From contig JAJZIL010000001.1 of assembly GCA_021810605.1 (NCBI GenBank), forward strand, positions 67,412-131,411: a DNA stretch of 64,000 nt. Direction: 5' to 3'. Source of the stretch: a bacterium. GTDB taxonomy: Bacteria > Patescibacteriota > Dojkabacteria > JAKAPS01 > JAJZLI01. Positions 4,370 through 57,053 of the stretch are shown piece after piece (position 1 is the stretch's first letter; every line of letters begins with the position of its first letter). The notes under the pieces were generated by a model. The model saw nothing but the letters and a program-made list of their open reading frames with translations. It did no database searches and had not been told where the DNA came from. A program made the translations under genes and the position numbers.

Positions 4370-4698
4370 TTTTTATAAGTAAATTATCTTTATTATTTAT
4401 TAGAATATTAATAAAGTTCTTTTGTAACTATAACTTATTATTTTAAAGTATTTAATAAAATGTTATTAAAAGTACTCTATTTTGTAGTTTTATTATTTTT
4501 AATAGATAAAATATACTAACATGTTATATAAATTGATTTAGAGTATAAATAAAATCAAATATAACTATATTAAAATGTATATCAAAATGTGAATATTAAT
4601 AGATATTCCAAAATTTTATTATATGGAATATATTTACAAAGTGTATAAATATTAATACAAGGATATTTTATAGATTTTAGATATAATTAATTTTTTAG

Positions 4699-4980
4699 TT
4701 ATATTTTCTCTACTCTTATTTTTAAATCTTTAATTAAATCAGTTGAATTCTTCTGAATTAAATCTATTATTTCAGATTTTCTTAGAAGTATTTCTTGTGC
4801 AATATTAGGATTATTTGATATTAAATTTATAGTTCCGTTTTTTATATTTTTGAGTTTTATATTATATTTTATATCTATATCTAATATATTCTCTATAGAT
4901 CCATATATAAGATCTCTATCCTTTATTTTATCTTTTATATCATTCATAGAAATATTATTAATTTTTAGCTTTTTAAGCAT
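4699..4980 (-). CDS. DUF721 / DciA-like small protein
   Basis: KNGTINLISNNPNIAQEILLRKSEIIDLIQKN resembles the DUF721 core (KNGVLTVEVDSSAWAQELSFLKPEILEKLN); located next to dnaN as DUF721/DciA genes typically are. Confidence 0.5.
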   Translation of the reverse strand: MLKKLKINNISMNDIKDKIKDRDLIYGSIENILDIDIKYNIKLKNIKNGTINLISNNPNIAQEILLRKSEIIDLIQKNSTDLIKDLKIRVEKI

Positions 4981-12492: not shown

Positions 12493-12503
12493 ACTTTGAT
12501 CAA

Positions 12504-12541
12504 TTAAGGGAGGTTTAATCCTCCCTTAATGTTATTTTATT
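12504..12541 (+). terminator. rho-independent terminator after dnaK (TTAAGGGAGG-tttaat-CCTCCCTTAA followed by a T-rich run)
   Basis: Perfect 10-bp stem, 6-nt loop, then tgttattttatt. Confidence 0.8.
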
Positions 12542-12552
12542 AATATAAGGGT

Positions 12553-12834
12553 ATGCATTATTATAATCAACCAGGTGTTCACAATTTAAATTTTATTCCT
12601 TTTGCCTTTTTTGGGGCATTGATGTTTGGTTTATTTTGGTTAATTGTGATCATTATTCTCGTATACTTTTTTAAAAAATCTAAACATCATAGACACCATA
12701 TACATTATGGATCATTAGGTTCGAATAGTGCAGAAAATCTTCTGAAAGAGAGATTCGTAAAAGGAGAGATTAATGATGAAGAGTATAAGCGAATGAAAAA
12801 AACTTTATCCGAAGATGTAGAGGATAAAAAATAA
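12553..12834 (+). CDS. small membrane protein with C-terminal SHOCT domain
   Basis: TM helix FGALMFGLFWLIVIIILVYFF, His-rich linker, then ENLLKERFVKGEINDEEYKRMKKTL (SHOCT motif). Confidence 0.6.
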   Translation: MHYYNQPGVHNLNFIPFAFFGALMFGLFWLIVIIILVYFFKKSKHHRHHIHYGSLGSNSAENLLKERFVKGEINDEEYKRMKKTLSEDVEDKK

Positions 12835-12919
12835 AAATTCAGTAATTCATAGAAAATTTTTCGATAATAAATATTTTTTCTTCTCTCAAATTATTAGTAT
12901 GTTTTTTACATAATATATT

Positions 12920-23334: not shown

Positions 23335-23699
23335 CTCAATTTATCTAAATTTAACTAAATAATTATAGAGTTTTCACCTATTTTTATCAATATGAATTAT
23401 TGTAAGTAATATTAATATAATTAATTTTTATGAAAGAAACATTAGATGAGAATAGAGTAGTTATAGAATGTTGTTTTTCTTATGATACTTTACTTTTAAG
23501 GTGTAAAAAATTTTTTGAATGAATATTTAATATAGATAGATACAATAAATATAATTTAGAATAAAGATATCTTTTAAATAATATAAGTTGCATAAATAAA
23601 AAAAGATTTAGATAAATTATATAAATTTTTATCAATAATCTAATTTAACCTACTTTAATAAATAAGGTTTTAATTTTTAATCTAAAAATTATATTTTAT

Positions 23700-23728
23700 T
23701 TGAAGATATTATATTTATAAGGTATAAT
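23700..23728 (+). promoter_or_regulatory. candidate promoter of rpmH-rnpA-yidC (TTGAAG-N17-TATAAT)
   Basis: Seen directly about 24 nt upstream of the rpmH ATG; background is AT-rich so chance matches are possible. Confidence 0.4.
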
Positions 23729-23751
23729 AAGTTTTATCATTTTTAATAGTT

Positions 23752-23934
23752 ATGAAAAGAACTTATCAGCCAAAAAAATTAAAAGCACTAAAAAAGTTAG
23801 GATATCTAAAAAGAAGTGCTTCTCATGGAGGAAGAAATGTACTTAAAAGGAGAAGACTTAAAGGAAGAGAAGTGCTAACAATTTCAGATATTTTTAGAAA
23901 AATAGGAAAAAAACCTAGAAATAGGGTAAGATAG
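23752..23934 (+). CDS. rpmH: 50S ribosomal protein L34 (with about 16-aa basic C-terminal extension)
   Basis: [11 protein letters not shown]...[21 protein letters not shown] matches the L34 consensus; extra [16 protein letters not shown] tail. Confidence 0.85.
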
Positions 23935-23938
23935 TAGT

Positions 23939-26274: not shown

Positions 26275-26834
26275 TGTATATATAGGTCTAGTGTAATAGA
26301 TGTATTTACTAAATTACTAACTCCGCCTTTTTGAGAAGTCATATTAATCATTATTATGTTTGAAAAATAATAGGAATTTTCTAACATTCGGATATATTCA
26401 GTTGTTCCTTGGAATGTTCCTGTTATATTTAAACTTACTGATAATGTTTTTCCAGCAGAAGTTGGTGTTGCAGAAGTTCCGGATCCTAGTTCTATTGATT
26501 GACTTGATACTGTTGCAGATCCAAATGCTATTTGAGCACTTACTCCTGTGATCTGTGCTATTATATTTTCTTGATTAACCCAATTACTTATTGAATTTTG
26601 AGAGATTAGAGTATTATATAGAAAATTTACTTTTTGGGCATATTGTTGTTTTTGATAAAGTAATGTTTGTTCTTCTAAATCTTTTTGTTTTATTGTAGAT
26701 AAAGTTACATTCAAAGATCTTTTACTGGTTCTAGTTTGAATGTATATATTATAGCTAAGGTATAAAGCATAGATTATTACTATTGATATAAGAAGATATA
26801 TTATATATTTTTTATATTCTTTATTTACTTTCAT
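26271..26834 (-). CDS. PilO-like type IV pilus assembly protein (TM anchor plus coiled coil)
   Basis: N-terminal TM (IIYLLISIVIIYALYLSY) then coiled-coil segment; position after the PilM-PilN gene. Confidence 0.45.
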   Translation of the reverse strand: MKVNKEYKKYIIYLLISIVIIYALYLSYNIYIQTRTSKRSLNVTLSTIKQKDLEEQTLLYQKQQYAQKVNFLYNTLISQNSISNWVNQENIIAQITGVSAQIAFGSATVSSQSIELGSGTSATPTSAGKTLSVSLNITGTFQGTTEYIRMLENSYYFSNIIMINMTSQKGGVSNLVNTSITLDLYIQ

Positions 26835-28419
26835 TATAGTTAAAAATCATTGTAAATCCAGGATTTATTGTACTCTCAAAATTAGATATTGGCATATTTA
26901 GTTTTGAAAAGTCAGTTTGCAAATTGATATTATTTTCTAGTTGTGTAATCTGAGTTTGGTTTTGAGCTTCTCCCTGTATTTTAATTTGCCAAATTGCTTG
27001 AGACCCTTTACCTACATTTGTTATATCAAGATTATTTAAAAAGACTCCATTAGGGACTAGATTAGAAATTTGAGATATTACATAAGACCAATGATACTGT
27101 GTTGTATAAGTTTGTGTTAATGTTGTAATTTGAGTATTCATATTATTAATTGAGCTAGATACACCTTTATATTTAGGATTTTTTATCTGCATTTGATAGT
27201 AATTAATCTGAGTATTTATACCTTTTATATCGATATTATCTATAAATGTTAGAAATACAAAGATTAAAGAAAGTAATACTAAGTTAAGAAGTAAAAATTT
27301 TAAGGCAGAAAATCCAAATTTAAGAAAATATGCTTGTATTGTTTTACTTTTTTGCTTTTTTGGGAGAAGATTTATGTATGTAGATGATGGAACTTTGTTT
27401 AAAAGTTCCAATCCTATTATAGGTACATAAGGAGATATTTGTTCATGCTTCTCCCATTGCAGAATTGGATAAACCTTTATATTTATCTTTGCTTTTTCTA
27501 CGACAACTTTGGTCATTTCTTGAATTCTCTCTATAACTCCATCTAAAGAGGCTGTCTCTCCATATATATATACTTTTTTGATTTTTTCTTCTCCATAGAA
27601 ATTAAGAGCTTTTTTCAATTCTTGATCAACTTGTAGAAATAAGTTCTCTATATGTTTTGCAAACTCATCATCTTTTGTTTTTATACCATTTTTTTCTAAA
27701 TATTCATTAATTTTCTCATCATTTAGTTTAAGATATTCTCCTGTAGTTTTAACTATTTGATTCAATCCAAAGTAGAATGAAGTAGAAAACTGTATAGCAT
27801 CTTTTTTATTAATTGCTATATTTGTAACACTCTTTCCCATATCTAATAGAAGATACTCTTCATCTTCTTTATTAAGAGTTATTGCTCTAAGTGCTGATTG
27901 AGCCCTTCCTTCAAAGAGTAGAGGAGTTATTCTTACAAGCTTTAAAGTGTCTATAAATGAATCTGCACTTTCTTTTGATACTGCAGTTACTATAACTTCA
28001 TAATTGTCATCATCTTCAGATAGAACATCATATGTCCAATAGATATCATCTTCCTTCATTGGAATTAAAGTAGATAACTGAAATTGTATTGCTTTTTCTA
28101 TTTTATTAATTTCTACTTTTGGAATTTTTACAATTTGAGAATATATCTGATCATCAGGGATTATTACAACTGCAAAACGTGTTTTTATTTTTTTTGGATT
28201 TTTTTTAGATAGTATTATATTGAGTTTTTCTATTACTGCATTAGGTTGTCTTATTATTCCTGCAATAAAAGTTGAAGCAGGGAGTTCTTCCTCTCCTATA
28301 TTTGTTAATGTGTAATGGTCTTTCTTTTTTTCAAATTCAACAACTTTTAATGATCCTGAAGATATGTCTATTGCAAATACCTTTTCTCGCCTTATTATAT
28401 CTTTGAGCAGATTTTCCAT
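26821..28419 (-). CDS. pilM: type IV pilus assembly protein PilM fused to a PilN-like TM/periplasmic segment
   Basis: N-terminal actin-like ATPase fold start (FAIDISSGSLKVVEF...) about 350 aa, then TM (FLLLNLVLLSLIFVFLTF) and periplasmic tail. Confidence 0.7.
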   Translation of the reverse strand: MENLLKDIIRREKVFAIDISSGSLKVVEFEKKKDHYTLTNIGEEELPASTFIAGIIRQPNAVIEKLNIILSKKNPKKIKTRFAVVIIPDDQIYSQIVKIPKVEINKIEKAIQFQLSTLIPMKEDDIYWTYDVLSEDDDNYEVIVTAVSKESADSFIDTLKLVRITPLLFEGRAQSALRAITLNKEDEEYLLLDMGKSVTNIAINKKDAIQFSTSFYFGLNQIVKTTGEYLKLNDEKINEYLEKNGIKTKDDEFAKHIENLFLQVDQELKKALNFYGEEKIKKVYIYGETASLDGVIERIQEMTKVVVEKAKINIKVYPILQWEKHEQISPYVPIIGLELLNKVPSSTYINLLPKKQKSKTIQAYFLKFGFSALKFLLLNLVLLSLIFVFLTFIDNIDIKGINTQINYYQMQIKNPKYKGVSSSINNMNTQITTLTQTYTTQYHWSYVISQISNLVPNGVFLNNLDITNVGKGSQAIWQIKIQGEAQNQTQITQLENNINLQTDFSKLNMPISNFESTINPGFTMIFNYNESK

Positions 28420-28746
28420 AAATTCATATTACATTATTTTTACATTTTAGTTAATGCCTGTATGCATTACATGTACCTATACCAAAAATAGTCTGTAAAA
28501 GAATATAATCTGATTAATACAGAATATACAATATCATATATATTAGTAGATCACATTATCTTCCTATTTCTAATGAATTAGTGTTTCTTTAATTTATATA
28601 AATGTATTAATAGGTTAAAATAGAAGTAATATTTTTTTGGAAGAGCAAAGTCATATAAATACTTATAAAATAGCTTAGGTATATAATTTAGGAAGTACAA
28701 AAGGTATAAATAGAGGATTAGATTATATAACAATTGCTTTATATAA

Positions 28747-29199
28747 TGGCAACTAAATTAGTATAATACTAATCAGGGATGTGATTATTTATTTAAAATA
28801 AATGAAGGTATTGGTGCTATAGTTTGGACATTTAATGAGGAGTATGGAAAAATTAAGTTTCCAAATGGAGCTCAGATGGAAGGAAACAGTTCCTACTATT
28901 ACTAAAAATAATGTATATATTGGATCTACTAGTGTCAAAAGATATTTGATGTATCTGTTTCTACTGGAAAAATCTAGTCTCAGAATGCTGTAGGTCTAAA
29001 TAATAAGCCATTTGTTATATTAGATAGTAATTTGTATTATGATAATGGGTTGGGGAATATCCTTGTATATAATAGACATACAGGAAAGTATCTTGCTGAA
29101 AGAACTACTGGAGGGGAAGTTGCAGTGAGTGGTTTGACCTATTCTAATGGTTTCTTTTATGTAGATAATACTGCTGGAAGATTTTTTATTTTTAAATAG
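28747..29199 (+). pseudogene. decayed PQQ-repeat beta-propeller gene (at least 3 frame disruptions)
   Basis: Three consecutive ORF fragments in different frames with propeller-repeat-like content: GIGAIVWTFNEEYGKIKFPNGAQ..., NNVYIGSTS..., and KPFVILDSNLYYDNGLGNILVYNRHTGKYLAERTTGGEVAVSGLTYSNGFFYVDNTAGRFFIFK. Confidence 0.5.
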
Positions 29200-29205
29200 A
29201 CTACA

Positions 29206-30636
29206 TTAATTTATCTCATTCCATGAAAGTATCTGAGTTGTTCCAGAGATAATATTAAATCCTGTAGTGGCATTAATTATTGTAGGATCTAGTGTTATCT
29301 GAGTTCCATTTATTGCGTTATAGTCACTATAATATAAGTTATTAATATTAAGGGATCCACCTGCCCAAATGGCTCCATTTATATTAATTGTAGAATTTCC
29401 ATCATTGGGTGTTACATCTGAAGGCATATCAATATCATCATTGATAGATATATTACCAGGAGTATATATTACTCCTGTGACATTGAATTCTAGATTTGTT
29501 CCATTGACTCCAATATAGATACCTTGATTTCCAGCTACTAGTGCAGGAAGATATTTTCCAGATGAAGGGGAGTATGGAGAAGTATCGATAAAACTTGCAT
29601 TTGTAGAGATTCCATTTTTAGACAGTAAAGATGAGTTTGTAAAGTTATATACAATAGGATTTCCTGCACTGTCTGTAGTGGGGAGATTTAAAGAATTAGA
29701 GTTTACATAATAAACTCCTGCAGGAGGAGTAATAGTATCAATTCCTGAGGATACATTAGAGTACCCTTGTAAATAAGATTCAAAGCTAGGTGTCGAATTG
29801 AAATATGTTCCGTTACTTTGAGCTAGACTAATCCATTGAGCTAATGGAAATGTAGGAAGGTTAATCTGAGGAGGAGGAGCAAGATTAACTATTGAACCAA
29901 TAGTTGAGTTATTTATTAAACAAGAAGATCCACCCCAGTATGTAGAATTATTACAAGAAATTTGTCCTGCAAGGTTAGAATTATATATCCAACTAAATAG
30001 ATTTGTACTAAGATTAAATATAGAGTTAGTATTTGTATTATTAACCTGCCAGAAATAATTTCCAAAACCATTTCCATTGCCAACAGAATTTATATTATCA
30101 GAATTGAAATTAACTTGAAAGAATTGCAATTCATTATTTGATTGTACATTTCCCTGAACTTGAAACCATTCTCCGGCTATATAATTATTTGCAAATAATG
30201 CATAATTAAGTATTGGTGGATTTTGCCCCATCTGTATTACAACTTGTAAACTTCTTTGAATTGCTATATTACTACTAGATCCATATTGATAAGCTTGAGC
30301 AATAGATACTATTGTAGCTTGTTCTGGAGATACAGATGTATTATATGTAACAGTTACATTATCTGACCCATTAATTTGAGCATCTATGGGGGATACAAAA
30401 GCTCCTCCTGTGAAACTTGAGCCATTTTCTCCAATTTGTAACATCGCATTTTCAACCCCTGATTCAGCTAGATATTTTACTTGTGAATCCAGTATGTCAT
30501 TTTGAGAAAGTTGATACTCAGAAGTTGCTATTGTTAAAATTGTTGTCATAACAGTTAAAAGTACTGCAGTTAAAACTATAATTGCAATTATTGCAGCCTG
30601 TCCTCTATTGTCTTCTTTGTGTTGCTGTTGTTTCAT
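29206..30636 (-). CDS. PilX-like large minor pilin / putative pilus tip adhesin
   Basis: N-terminus NRGQAAIIAIIVLTAVLLTVMTTILTIATSEYQLSQN resembles the PilX N-terminal domain; 476 aa, N/S/T/G-rich globular region. Confidence 0.5.
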   Translation of the reverse strand: MKQQQHKEDNRGQAAIIAIIVLTAVLLTVMTTILTIATSEYQLSQNDILDSQVKYLAESGVENAMLQIGENGSSFTGGAFVSPIDAQINGSDNVTVTYNTSVSPEQATIVSIAQAYQYGSSSNIAIQRSLQVVIQMGQNPPILNYALFANNYIAGEWFQVQGNVQSNNELQFFQVNFNSDNINSVGNGNGFGNYFWQVNNTNTNSIFNLSTNLFSWIYNSNLAGQISCNNSTYWGGSSCLINNSTIGSIVNLAPPPQINLPTFPLAQWISLAQSNGTYFNSTPSFESYLQGYSNVSSGIDTITPPAGVYYVNSNSLNLPTTDSAGNPIVYNFTNSSLLSKNGISTNASFIDTSPYSPSSGKYLPALVAGNQGIYIGVNGTNLEFNVTGVIYTPGNISINDDIDMPSDVTPNDGNSTININGAIWAGGSLNINNLYYSDYNAINGTQITLDPTIINATTGFNIISGTTQILSWNEIN

Positions 30637-31123
30637 ATGTTTTTTTAGTTATAATACCACTTGTACCTACATTAGATTCTGTAATATTTACAAGTATTGT
30701 AGGAGAGATTCCTGTGTTAGCTTCTTCACTAAATGATAAATCATATGTATATATATTTGAAGAAGATATCTGTTCAGGAGTATTATTATCATATTGAGAG
30801 TAAATAATCCCATTTGAAGAATAAAACATAATTTTATCTCCTCCTGAGTCTGTTTGTACTATTAAATCATTAGTTGTAGTATTAGTTGGATTTGGAGTCA
30901 ATACTTGATATCCATCTTCAACTGTTTGAGTTATCTCTTTCATACTTATCCTTATAGTATCATTTGCGTTAGCAATTGTTGTTATTTTATTTTGTGTAGA
31001 TATTAAATCTACAAGTATTGTAGTAGTTACAATAATAATAATCCCTAATATTAGTACATAAAGTATAGTTTCAATAAGTGTTTGTCCATTATTATTATTT
31101 CCCATAATTAAAAGGATTGCCAA
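30605..31123 (-). CDS. pseudopilin (prepilin-type N-terminus)
   Basis: GNNNNGQTLIETILYVLILGIIIIV (G|QTLIE plus hydrophobic helix). Confidence 0.65.
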   Translation of the reverse strand: MAILLIMGNNNNGQTLIETILYVLILGIIIIVTTTILVDLISTQNKITTIANANDTIRISMKEITQTVEDGYQVLTPNPTNTTTNDLIVQTDSGGDKIMFYSSNGIIYSQYDNNTPEQISSSNIYTYDLSFSEEANTGISPTILVNITESNVGTSGIITKKTYETTATQRRQ

Positions 31124-31602
31124 TTAGTTAAATATTCAGTCTCTGAGTAAGAAAAATTTTCTCCAAATGAGTTGAAGGATACATTTGCAGTAACTTCCAT
31201 AGAATTTGTATCAATTGGTTGTGTGGTATCTGTTGTAAATGTATTGGAATTTGATCTATATGCTGGAGCAATTACAACATCAACAGTATACTCATTATAT
31301 GTTTCTGATCCTGGAACAAGTTCCCATCCTTGTACTATGTGGGGTGTAGCATTCGTTGGATTATATTGAAGATAATATTCTCCTGCAACAAGATTTGACC
31401 ATGATTGATTCTGTACTGCATAAAGACTCTCTATTTGTTGTTGTAGTAAATATTTTGCTTCTAATTTTTGTTTTGATATTTCTATCGATTTATATACTAG
31501 TTGTACTGAAAAAAGGGAAGATCCAAAAATTATAGCTATAATAGTTATAGTCAAAAGTAATTCAATAAATGCTTGTCCTTTATTATTAATATACTGCTCC
31601 AT
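31108..31602 (-). CDS. pseudopilin (prepilin-type N-terminus)
   Basis: NNKGQAFIELLLTITIIAIIFG (G|QAFIE plus helix). Confidence 0.65.
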   Translation of the reverse strand: MEQYINNKGQAFIELLLTITIIAIIFGSSLFSVQLVYKSIEISKQKLEAKYLLQQQIESLYAVQNQSWSNLVAGEYYLQYNPTNATPHIVQGWELVPGSETYNEYTVDVVIAPAYRSNSNTFTTDTTQPIDTNSMEVTANVSFNSFGENFSYSETEYLTNWQSF

Positions 31603-32053
31603 TATTATTTATATTCATTAATATAAAATAACTTGAGTTTCCTATATCAAAGGATACTCCAGAGTTAGTAAGTTGTCCATTTACAGAGTTAAATATAATT
31701 GGATTATTTTCTGAAGGGGTAAGATTATAAAGTGTTACCTCAGGAGGAAAATAATATGTATCATTAGCACTATTAGTAGAAGAATAGTTGTTTCCAGGAA
31801 ATAGGGTAATTTGATTAGTTTGGAATTCTATTCCATACTGACTAAATCCTGCAAGATTATCAAGTGCATCATCTTGAGCTTCTTTTATCATTGAATATAC
31901 GTTTTGATTTGCACTATCTACATTTGTATGGGTAAGTAATGTCAGATAAGAGAATCCTATGAGCAATGACATTATACCTAGTATTGTTATTACTATTAAA
32001 ATCTCTATGAGTGTAAATCCTTTATTTTGCTGGTGCATTTCCTCCTGCTCCAC
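31586..32053 (-). CDS. pseudopilin / minor pilin (canonical GFTLIE motif)
   Basis: QNKGFTLIEILIVITILGIMSLL. Confidence 0.75.
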   Translation of the reverse strand: MEQEEMHQQNKGFTLIEILIVITILGIMSLLIGFSYLTLLTHTNVDSANQNVYSMIKEAQDDALDNLAGFSQYGIEFQTNQITLFPGNNYSSTNSANDTYYFPPEVTLYNLTPSENNPIIFNSVNGQLTNSGVSFDIGNSSYFILMNINNNGAVY

Positions 32054-33278
32054 TTGCTGCGGAAGTCCCTGAAGTACTTCCGATACTTCCTGTCATCTGA
32101 TATATTGGTGCTATTACTGAGAGTGCTATCAAAAGGACTCCACCTCCCATAACAAATAACATTAAAGGTTCAATTATTACTGACAGATTTGCTAAAGTAT
32201 CATCTACTTGGTTTTGATAAAATTCTGCAACGGAAAGAAGCATTTCAGAAGTATTCCCAGTTTTATCTCCAACAGCAATCATTCTTGTAGCAAGATTAGG
32301 AAAAAGTTTTGGATATTTTGATAAAGTTGGAGATATTTGATCTCCTCTCTCTACACTAGCTCCTAACTCAATTATGATTTTTTTATATGCTTCATTTGAT
32401 ACAGTATCTTTTACAATAGTAATGGATTGATTTATAGGAATTCCACTTTTAAGAAGATTTCCTAATGTTCTTGAAAAATTTGTTACATTTATTTTTTTTA
32501 TAATCTCTCCTACTATTGGGATTTTTACGGAGATAACATTCCATGCATATTTTGCTTGTGGAAGTCTTAGAAGTGCTCTAAATACAAATATAAGGATAAT
32601 AATTAATATTAATACCTCTAATCCATAATGAGTAAGAATATTAGATAAATCTATCATTATTTGAGTAGGTAGAGGGAGAGATTCTCCACTTCCTTTAAAA
32701 AGACCACTTAACTGAGGGAATACAAAAATTATTAATCCTATTGAAACTATAAGCATTATGCTTACTATGATTGCAGGATACATCAAAGCTCCTATAACTT
32801 TTTTTCTTAAATCATAACTTTTTTGTACTTGATCTTTAATAAGAACTGTGTTTTCAGAAATAGTACCACTAGTCTCTCCAATTTCCATCATTTTTACTAT
32901 CAGTGGTGTAAAGATATAAGGATATTTTTTCATAGTATCAGAGAGCTTATTTCCAGATTCTACATTATATTTTAAATCTTCAATAACAGTTTTAAATACC
33001 TTGGTTTCTGCATCTTGTACAAGGGAGTCAAGTGTATCTGCTAGTGAGAGTCCTGCTGTAAGCATTTTTCCCATATGGTCAAAAAAAAGAAGCTTTTCTA
33101 CTAATTTTACCCTTCCCTTTGTTGCATTCTTTGTCTTATCTTTGCTCTCCTCAATTGAAAGAATTGTAAGATTTTCAGATCTGATGATCTCCATTGCTTC
33201 ATCTTTTCCAGATGCACTAACAGTACCTTTTTTAACATCTCCTTGTAGATCTGTAGCTTCATAAATAAATTCTGCCAT
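32022..33278 (-). CDS. pilC: type IV pilus platform protein PilC (GspF family)
   Basis: 418 aa; N-terminal MAEFIYEATDLQGDVKKGTVSASGKDEAMEIIRSENLTILSIEE typical of PilC/GspF; two repeated 3-TM modules. Confidence 0.85.
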   Translation of the reverse strand: MAEFIYEATDLQGDVKKGTVSASGKDEAMEIIRSENLTILSIEESKDKTKNATKGRVKLVEKLLFFDHMGKMLTAGLSLADTLDSLVQDAETKVFKTVIEDLKYNVESGNKLSDTMKKYPYIFTPLIVKMMEIGETSGTISENTVLIKDQVQKSYDLRKKVIGALMYPAIIVSIMLIVSIGLIIFVFPQLSGLFKGSGESLPLPTQIMIDLSNILTHYGLEVLILIIILIFVFRALLRLPQAKYAWNVISVKIPIVGEIIKKINVTNFSRTLGNLLKSGIPINQSITIVKDTVSNEAYKKIIIELGASVERGDQISPTLSKYPKLFPNLATRMIAVGDKTGNTSEMLLSVAEFYQNQVDDTLANLSVIIEPLMLFVMGGGVLLIALSVIAPIYQMTGSIGSTSGTSAASGAGGNAPAK

Positions 33279-56620: not shown

Positions 56621-56910
56621 TTTTTAAGACCCAATCTTTTAATTAACATGGAATATCTTTCTTGATCTTTTGATTCAAGAAAAGCTAGAATTCTTCTTCT
56701 TTTTCCAATAAGTTGAAGTAATCCTCTTCTAGAGTGGTTATCTTTCTTATTTAATTTAAGATGTTCTGACAATTGAAGTATTCTCTGAGTGAATAATGCA
56801 GCCTGTACCTCAGGAGACCCATTATCACCATCATGAGTTGCAAAACTCTTAATTATTTTGTCTCGACTATTTTTTAAAAAGTCGATATCCTCATTGATTT
56901 TTTTAACCAT
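56617..56910 (-). CDS. rpsO: 30S ribosomal protein S15
   Basis: GSPEVQAALFTQRILQLSEHLKLNKKDNHSRRGLLQLIGKRRRILAFL matches the S15 consensus. Confidence 0.9.
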   Translation of the reverse strand: MVKKINEDIDFLKNSRDKIIKSFATHDGDNGSPEVQAALFTQRILQLSEHLKLNKKDNHSRRGLLQLIGKRRRILAFLESKDQERYSMLIKRLGLKK

Positions 56911-57053
56911 TTTTTGATCAAATAAAAATAATACCTAATTGGGTATATTTAATTATAAAATATTTAGTAAAAGAAGCTTTCTATATCTGATACTAACACA
57001 AATTCTGAATAAAAGTCAAAACATCACAATTATCCCTATATATATTTTATTTG

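Follow-up and report, generated by a model that had tools for sequence, protein, structure and literature searches.

We found that positions ~28577-29199 on the forward strand of the window, which is the whole 64,000-nucleotide stretch of DNA analysed here, are very probably the non-functional 3' remnant of a PQQ-like (BamB-type) beta-propeller gene. The intact gene encodes 444-445 aa, and its product is predicted to be membrane-anchored and extracytoplasmic. The locus is an ordinary pseudogene that had escaped annotation, and its protein family is known. The original prediction had called it a true pseudogene, and this call is upheld by an intact syntenic gene in relatives and by many lesions that recur in independent assemblies.

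The remnant lies in a type IV pilus cluster. We observed the following features around it.

32022-33278, reverse strand: pilC, part of the type IV pilus cluster.
30605-32053, reverse strand: three pilin-like genes of the same cluster.
29206-30636, reverse strand: intact PilX-like minor-pilin-type gene of 476 aa, the upstream half of a split pilus operon.
28420-29205: gene-free gap of 786 bp between the PilX-like gene and the pilM-pilN fusion gene.
26821-28419, reverse strand: intact pilM-pilN fusion gene of 532 aa (Pfam PilM_2 and PilN), the downstream half of the split operon.

The PilX_N match of the PilX-like gene was weak (E 0.005, under the Pfam threshold). Two more small genes come after the pilM-pilN fusion gene. 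We also noted that the fusion of pilM and pilN is shared by all relatives, down to 47% identity.

The window has a GC content of 27.5% overall, and ORFs of at least 100 aa cover 89% of it. The 786-bp gap is its second-longest ORF-free stretch. Further ORF-free stretches of more than 400 bp are located at 4370-4972, 23335-23938 (within which a short L34 gene sits), 56621-57053 and 12493-12919. An interval of approximately 790 bp with no long ORF had been reported between the PilX-like gene and pilM, and we measured 786 bp with no ORF longer than 55 aa on either strand. The three out-of-frame peptides described earlier were all found on the forward strand of the gap. GIGAIVWTF is read in the frame of 28420+3k and VYIGSTS in the +1 frame, while VYNRHTGKYL...FYVD returns to the frame of 28420+3k, past an in-frame TAG at 28975-28977.

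We searched the gap for other kinds of elements. No RNA family was detected in it (Rfam, E<=1), and none reached the gathering threshold across the 64-kb window, which also contains no tRNA genes. Neither a terminator-like site nor transposon-like terminal repeats were found in the 786 bp. The short direct and inverted repeats of the gap reflect blade periodicity (a 120-nt 'GKI' spacing) or chance matches in AT-rich DNA. No paralogue or repeat of the relic was found elsewhere in the 64-kb window, and a literature search on pseudogenes and type IV pili in Patescibacteria returned nothing relevant.

The relic was assigned to its family through intact proteins. The peptide reconstructed from it (144 aa) and the three fragments of that peptide gave no PQQ match in Pfam even at E<=10. 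The relic alone gave nothing against PDB sequences (phmmer) and nothing useful in a word-index search of 5.8 billion proteins. The family assignment is therefore indirect, since the relic alone lacks a significant Pfam, PDB or word-index match. The 73-aa piece that is still in frame (28978-29196) matched the extreme C-terminus of a 445-aa protein, P0001, with 52% identity and E 6.8e-24 in a HMMER search of 1.84 billion representatives. When the whole window was searched by tblastn with P0001, residues 302-445 matched 28768-29196 (E 1e-39) and no other place was hit. Weak collinear tblastn matches were obtained in the more decayed part with residues 257-288 of P0001 and 228-282 of P0008. A family search with P0001 yielded a tight subfamily of proteins of ~430-457 aa. 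One of the twelve family members, P0012, has 408 aa and comes from a 2-kb contig. NCBI lists two subfamily members under the name 'PQQ-binding-like beta-propeller repeat protein [Patescibacteria group bacterium]'.

The closest members were the intact orthologs P0017 and P0018. The repaired 144-aa peptide is 79% identical to their C-termini (blastp, E 2e-80 and 4e-78), and the DNA of the relic is 78-79% identical to the two genes and collinear with them, flanks included. The intact proteins score well above the PQQ_2 (PF13360) cut-off of 27.6 bits (P0001, 96.2; P0017, 89.7; P0018, 86.4). These Pfam matches of the orthologs fall mainly at residues ~110-275, a region mostly deleted in the relic. 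Matches of the intact homologues to PF01011, the family of PQQ-dependent dehydrogenases, are at the level of repeats, with 40-53 bits over ~40-80 residues of a 595-position model. On sequence grounds, we assign the relic to the PQQ_2/BamB-type beta-propeller gene family through orthology. The PQQ beta-propeller call made earlier was thus correct, by way of orthology to intact proteins and not by a direct domain match.

The genes for P0017 and P0018 are carried by L013 and L015, respectively, two contigs of one metagenome. In both contigs an intact propeller gene occupies the same position in the same orientation as the relic. Collinearity at the DNA level between the window, L013 and L015 extends over both flanks and the whole neighbourhood. 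The pilMN genes are 85.9-86.3% identical in DNA in all three pairs, so the window, L013 and L015 are about equidistant. The PilMN protein of the window is 91% identical to the representative of the L013/L015 cluster. The gene orders of the two contigs are as follows.

L015: pilMN (reverse), a DUF5674 gene (forward), a gene of 113 aa (forward), the propeller gene (forward), 6 bp, the PilX-like gene (reverse).
L013: the core found in L015, flanked by a 272-aa gene and, on the opposite side, by small ORFs and a PIN/MazE pair.

The 272-aa gene of L013 (L013:8871-9689, reverse strand) lies between pilMN and the propeller gene. Its borderline match to mTERF, an unusual family for bacteria, sits right on the cut-off with 23.1 bits (E 4e-5). 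On the other side, between the propeller gene and the PilX-like gene, L013 has approximately 2.2 kb of extra DNA with a 91-aa ORF, the PIN/MazE toxin-antitoxin pair and a 71-aa ORF. This DNA is bracketed by a 99-bp direct duplication (L013:11331-11429 and L013:13535-13633, 95% identical) of the 3' end of the PilX-like gene with its stop codon. The duplication resembles the outcome of an insertion that copied a long target, or else a scar left by recombination. Together with the differing cargo of L013 and L015, it points to a variable spot.

We defined the extent of the relic by a three-way DNA alignment with L013 and L015 and by codon-by-codon projection onto 12 family members. Lesions were scored relative to both intact genes. 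The gap is composed of the following parts.

28420-28459, reverse strand: ancestral PilX-to-pilM spacer of ~40 bp, kept beside pilM.
28460-28576: AT-rich filler of 117 bp, about 22% GC, between the relic and the pilM leader.
28577-29199, forward strand: relic of the PQQ_2/BamB-type propeller gene, corresponding to codons ~225/233-445 of the 444-445-aa orthologs P0018 and P0017.
28577-28770, forward strand: most decayed part of the relic, with five indels and up to three stops.
28771-28977, forward strand: middle part, with three indels and one stop, which houses the first two of the fragments described earlier.
28978-29199, forward strand: last 73 codons and the stop codon, with no indel and no premature stop.
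29200-29205: spacer of 6 bp from the relic stop codon to the convergent stop codon of the PilX-like gene (29206-29208), of the same length in L015.

Homology of the relic is firm from ~28604 and weak across 28577-28603. The original prediction had placed the pseudogene at 28747-29199; its 3' end is retained here, while its start is moved to ~28577-28604. Nothing is left of the first ~225-232 codons (~52% of the gene, ~700 bp), and with them the start codon and the sequence encoding the transmembrane helix, the linker and the N-terminal half of the propeller have gone. It had also been suggested that repair of the frameshifts would give an intact ORF of roughly 150 aa. This does not hold, as the intact protein has 444-445 aa and the relic is without the first ~52%. 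The filler at 28460-28576 matches L013 and L015 only weakly (60-77% identity) and is probably leftover upstream cargo or intergenic DNA that remained after a deletion.

In total, seven indels of the relic shift the frame, one further deletion is in frame, and premature stops number three or four. The several frame breaks noticed at the outset are confirmed, and there are many more lesions than three. The indels of the most decayed part are -5 after 28603, +8 at 28622-28629, -20 after 28658, -17 after 28736 and -5 after 28759. Its stops in the ancestral frame are TAG at 28579 (in weakly aligned DNA), TAA at 28616 and TAG at 28676 (TGG to TAG). The GC content of this part is 20%, compared with 31-32% in the orthologs and 21.8% in the non-coding DNA of the window. 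The middle part has +1 at 28880, -1 after 28935, an in-frame -3 after 28967 and a TGG to TAG change at 28975-28977. Both TGG to TAG stops (28676 and 28975) fall on tryptophans that are invariant in the family. In the last 73 codons every family-invariant residue is kept. Among the codons of this 3' part at which the orthologs agree and the window differs, we counted roughly 15-16 synonymous to 7 non-synonymous changes (tally from the per-codon listing). The stop codon of the relic (29197-29199) is TAG, while the orthologs have TAA.

We examined whether these lesions are present in other assemblies. A PilMN protein identical to that of the window is encoded on 23 contigs. Seven loci were compared, from ENA assemblies, two NCBI MAGs (GCA_027425055.1 and GCA_021844045.1) and Logan assemblies of single runs. 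The gap was exactly 786 bp long in all seven assemblies, with 0-3 SNPs relative to the window, and in none of the seven was a gene called within it. SNPs elsewhere set the assemblies apart, and we therefore treat them as independent. The SNPs within the gap are at 28717, 28781 and 29149. Their density can be set against the flanking DNA: 3 in the 786-bp gap and 4 in ~3980 bp of flanking DNA (L006). The one at 29149 turns GGT into AGT within the relic's 'SNG' motif, which replaces a conserved Gly with Ser. The disabling lesions are common to all sampled strains.

Short indels in AT-rich homopolymer runs are a common type of error, and the +1 and -1 frameshifts of the relic both lie in A-rich runs. 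The frame breaks could accordingly be taken for sequencing or assembly errors in a gene that is intact in the cell. We consider this next to impossible. The same 786 bp were recovered from different samples by different pipelines, and because seven independent assemblies carry an identical structure the lesions are not assembly errors. Homopolymer error in particular is ruled out by the deletions of 17-20 bp, the stops created by base substitution and the ~700 bp of coding sequence missing at the 5' end; the +8 and the two -5 indels also argue against errors. An alternative genetic code was considered separately and rejected: the neighbouring genes are open under table 11, the stops are both TAG and TAA, and large indels are present besides.

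We analyzed the structure of the intact protein using an AlphaFold model of P0017 (mean pLDDT 85.5, pTM 0.83). In the model, an N-terminal helix at residues 6-30 leads through a linker of low confidence (32-60) to an all-beta propeller. Foldseek matched this propeller to tetrathionate hydrolase and BamB with E values of 1e-23 to 1e-18, and a profile search against PDB sequences agreed with this result. P0017 and P0018 have no cysteine within their first 60 residues and hence no lipobox. As judged from the model, the intact protein is predicted to be membrane-anchored and extracytoplasmic. The lost protein had been described as an outer-surface one; membrane-anchored and extracytoplasmic is the better description, given the N-terminal helix at 6-30 and the lack of a lipobox. 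A closed propeller ring is impossible from the relic, as only the C-terminal part is encoded.

We then compared the junction between the PilX-like gene and pilM in more distant lineages. In three of them the two genes are separated by only 28-41 bp and the order of the pilus genes is the same. These lineages, by PilMN identity to the window, are as follows.

79% identity: P0134 (L026-L029).
66% identity: P0135 (L008).
62% identity: P0136 (L009, L030).

The spacer beside pilM (28420-28459) matches L026 almost base for base, the window and L026 sharing 29 nt. The motif TTAACTAAAATGTAAAAATAATGTAATAT of the window spacer is also found in L026, where the junction is empty, and the spacer core AAAAATAATGTAA is present in L008 and L009 as well. 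The counterparts of the spacer lie at L026:7960-8000, L008:3979-4019 and L009:5973-6000, in lineages whose PilMN proteins are only 62-79% identical. On the pilM side, the blastn homology of the window with L013 and L015 stops at 28456-28459. From its sequence, the conserved spacer may be a translation-initiation or promoter element for pilMN.

Other genes of the propeller family lie away from pilus genes. Those for P0019 and P0016 stand at the end of a conserved block, after the genes for a giant Kelch/TIG protein and four proteins of ~300 aa, and an ABC transporter follows the block. This block, which may be the 'home' context of the family, was seen in two genomes (L016:1-12222 and L020:1-11594). 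Its Kelch/TIG repeat protein has 1610-2233 aa, its four proteins of ~270-355 aa have essentially no Pfam match apart from one faint Big_6 hit, and the transporter is of the ABC_tran plus ABC_tran_2 type. P0001 adjoins a YfhO-like gene. P0011 adjoins SerRS, with a second paralogue 10 kb off. In L023 two propeller paralogues are located ~10 kb apart (L023:4454-5827 and L023:15686-15827, the latter running off the end), and a DUF5674 gene lies 2 kb from the first of them; a DUF5674 gene is also found beside the propeller gene of L015, in a different context. The longest contig for both P0016 and the 62% PilMN variant has 756,957 bp, which suggests that an empty junction and a propeller gene at another site may occur together in a single genome.

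These comparisons bear on whether the lost protein belonged to the pilus. The C-terminal domain of PilY1 is a propeller, and PilY1 is encoded after pilX in classical minor-pilin operons. The propeller protein could accordingly be an ancestral pilus accessory and a functional analogue of PilY1, with the decay and the absences representing repeated losses of a pilus component. The propeller gene does directly adjoin the PilX-like gene in three lineages, and a membrane-anchored, extracytoplasmic location, as predicted from the model, would suit such a role. We nevertheless regard this explanation as quite improbable. PilY1/PilC was absent among the Pfam matches of P0001, P0017 and P0018 at E<=0.01, and PilY1 was not in the best 50 Foldseek or the best 60 PDB profile hits. 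The propeller gene is convergent with the operon and does not belong to it. Three lineages have an empty junction within an otherwise identical order of pilus genes, family members occur in four contexts without pilus genes, and the cargo of L013 and L015 differs (toxin-antitoxin pair, DUF5674), as at an insertion hotspot. A pilus role is thus not supported, because the junction is empty elsewhere, kin lie away from pilus genes and no match to PilY1/PilC was obtained. We do not retain the earlier label 'pilus-associated': the gene is on the strand opposite to the operon, three lineages lack it at this junction, and its kin are found in non-pilus contexts.

The likeliest reading of the locus is gain followed by loss. 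It is also the simplest, by parsimony over only six lineages, with clean deletions in the other three as the alternative. According to this scheme, accessory DNA would have been inserted right after the stop codon of the PilX-like gene in the ancestor that the window shares with L013 and L015. The inserted block, with the propeller gene, would have sat ahead of the old ~40-bp PilX-pilM spacer and so would have split the pilus operon. In the lineage of the window, a deletion of at least ~1.6 kb would then have taken the 5' half of the propeller gene and upstream DNA, and the remnant, left without promoter or start codon, would have drifted. Transcription of pilMN would then depend on transcripts that read through the relic or on a promoter within it.

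Indels and substitutions in the relic were counted. Overall, 51 bp were lost and 9 gained, and the substitutions specific to the window comprise 31 GC-to-AT versus 16 AT-to-GC changes. On the window branch, the relic has 22 synonymous to 28 non-synonymous changes, compared with 16:7 and 13:5 on the intact branches (three taxa). Divergence on this branch is ~0.08-0.10 over 28653-29053, scarcely above that of the intact branches, so that the substitutions give no demonstration of relaxed constraint. The loss had been described as recent, and this can be kept only in a relative sense: it took place after the split from L013/L015 (~14% DNA divergence) and before the strains diverged (<=0.4%).

The decay is graded from 5' to 3'. 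About 11 lesions fall in 28577-28977. The last 222 bp have none; a uniform distribution would place about 6 there (estimate from the lesion counts). A simple uniform neutral model does not predict this pattern. In a sliding comparison, the extra divergence of the last segment carries on smoothly beyond the relic, through the 3' end of the PilX-like gene and the half that encodes its C-terminus. The window-specific branch at 28950-30150 is about twice as long (0.135-0.21) as in pilMN and the rest of the relic (0.04-0.12), which suggests recombination or diversifying evolution of the C-terminal domain of the PilX-like protein. For the last segment we favour a regional history, that is a recombination tract or variable-region effect, with the divergence mostly gained while the gene still worked; this is based on three taxa. 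Present-day selection on the relic is less likely.

The relic might still have been kept for a part that works, either a small translated ORF or promoter or leader DNA for pilMNO. The last 73 codons are free of lesions and keep the family-invariant residues, and their differences from the orthologs are mostly synonymous. A candidate ORF of 55 aa with a TTG start is present at 29032-29199, and a promoter-like site runs on the reverse strand from 28938 to 28910 (TTGACA, 17 nt, TACATT; 10/12 matches). Retention for either purpose is, however, very improbable. TTG is the sole possible start of the ORF, and the product would be without signal or anchor and, at approximately one and a half propeller blades, unable to fold alone. 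No gene caller called this ORF in the seven assemblies, no stand-alone short homologue was found among 1.84 billion proteins, and the strains vary from G to S at the conserved Gly (29149). The divergence runs unbroken into the 3' end of the PilX-like gene, and selection on the relic explains this less well than a recombination tract or a regional effect does. The gap has no excess of promoter-like sites, with 6 found versus 8.4 expected in shuffled sequence. Most likely, the relic does nothing today.

A broader reading joins several of these elements. In this Patescibacteria clade, the PilX-like/pilM junction would be a hotspot of recombination and insertion, at which genes for surface proteins and toxin-antitoxin systems come, go and replace one another. 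The propeller protein would serve the pilus or host contact as an accessory particular to its lineage. The last 73 codons would either be under residual selection or belong to a recombination tract of recent date that also covers the variable C-terminal half of the PilX-like gene. We hold this combination to be rather unlikely as a whole, and prefer the remnant of an inserted, truncated and drifting propeller gene.

In summary, the locus presents gene decay caught midway in a small AT-rich genome of the Patescibacteria type, a lineage that is usually called streamlined. The intact state in the sister lineages allows rough estimates of the patterns of indels and AT drift. In the history favoured here, accessory DNA entered the clade's pilus operon and divided it, yet all pilus genes are still intact, and the question therefore arises how pilMNO is transcribed. 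The locus also gives a caution that adjacency is a poor guide to function, as genes of the propeller family are found in four or more other contexts.

Several known systems resemble the locus or its intact orthologs. In the minor-pilin operons of type IVa pili, PilY1/PilC is a propeller gene beside a pilX-type gene, and likewise at this locus; the family described here differs from it in orientation, in Pfam matches and in conservation at the junction, and most of its members are encoded elsewhere. BamB (YfgL) has the PQQ_2 family name and the propeller fold in common with the orthologs, and matches the P0017 model with target-normalised TM-scores of 0.54-0.78, mostly ~0.7-0.78, and E values down to 1e-20 (Foldseek). 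BamB is an outer-membrane lipoprotein of the BAM complex, whereas the orthologs are 14-18% identical to it and have a transmembrane helix and no lipobox cysteine. To our knowledge, BAM machinery is not known in Patescibacteria. The likeness to BamB is one of fold and not of function. The best structural match of the P0017 model is tetrathionate hydrolase of Acidithiobacillus ferrooxidans (6l8a and 7cqy; E 1e-23, TM 0.69, 24% identity over ~390 columns), and propeller folds recur across unrelated functions. With ordinary bacterial pseudogene decay the relic shares an intact syntenic ortholog, many lesions, a deletion bias, an excess of GC-to-AT changes and fixation in the population; its strong 5'-to-3' grading is not predicted by a uniform process. 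The closest known system is the Patescibacteria PQQ-like propeller subfamily itself (P0017, P0018, P0019, P0001 and others). The relic matches the C-terminal 43-48% of P0017 and P0018, and differs from the subfamily in that its members are intact whereas the relic is truncated at the 5' end, frameshifted and interrupted by stops.
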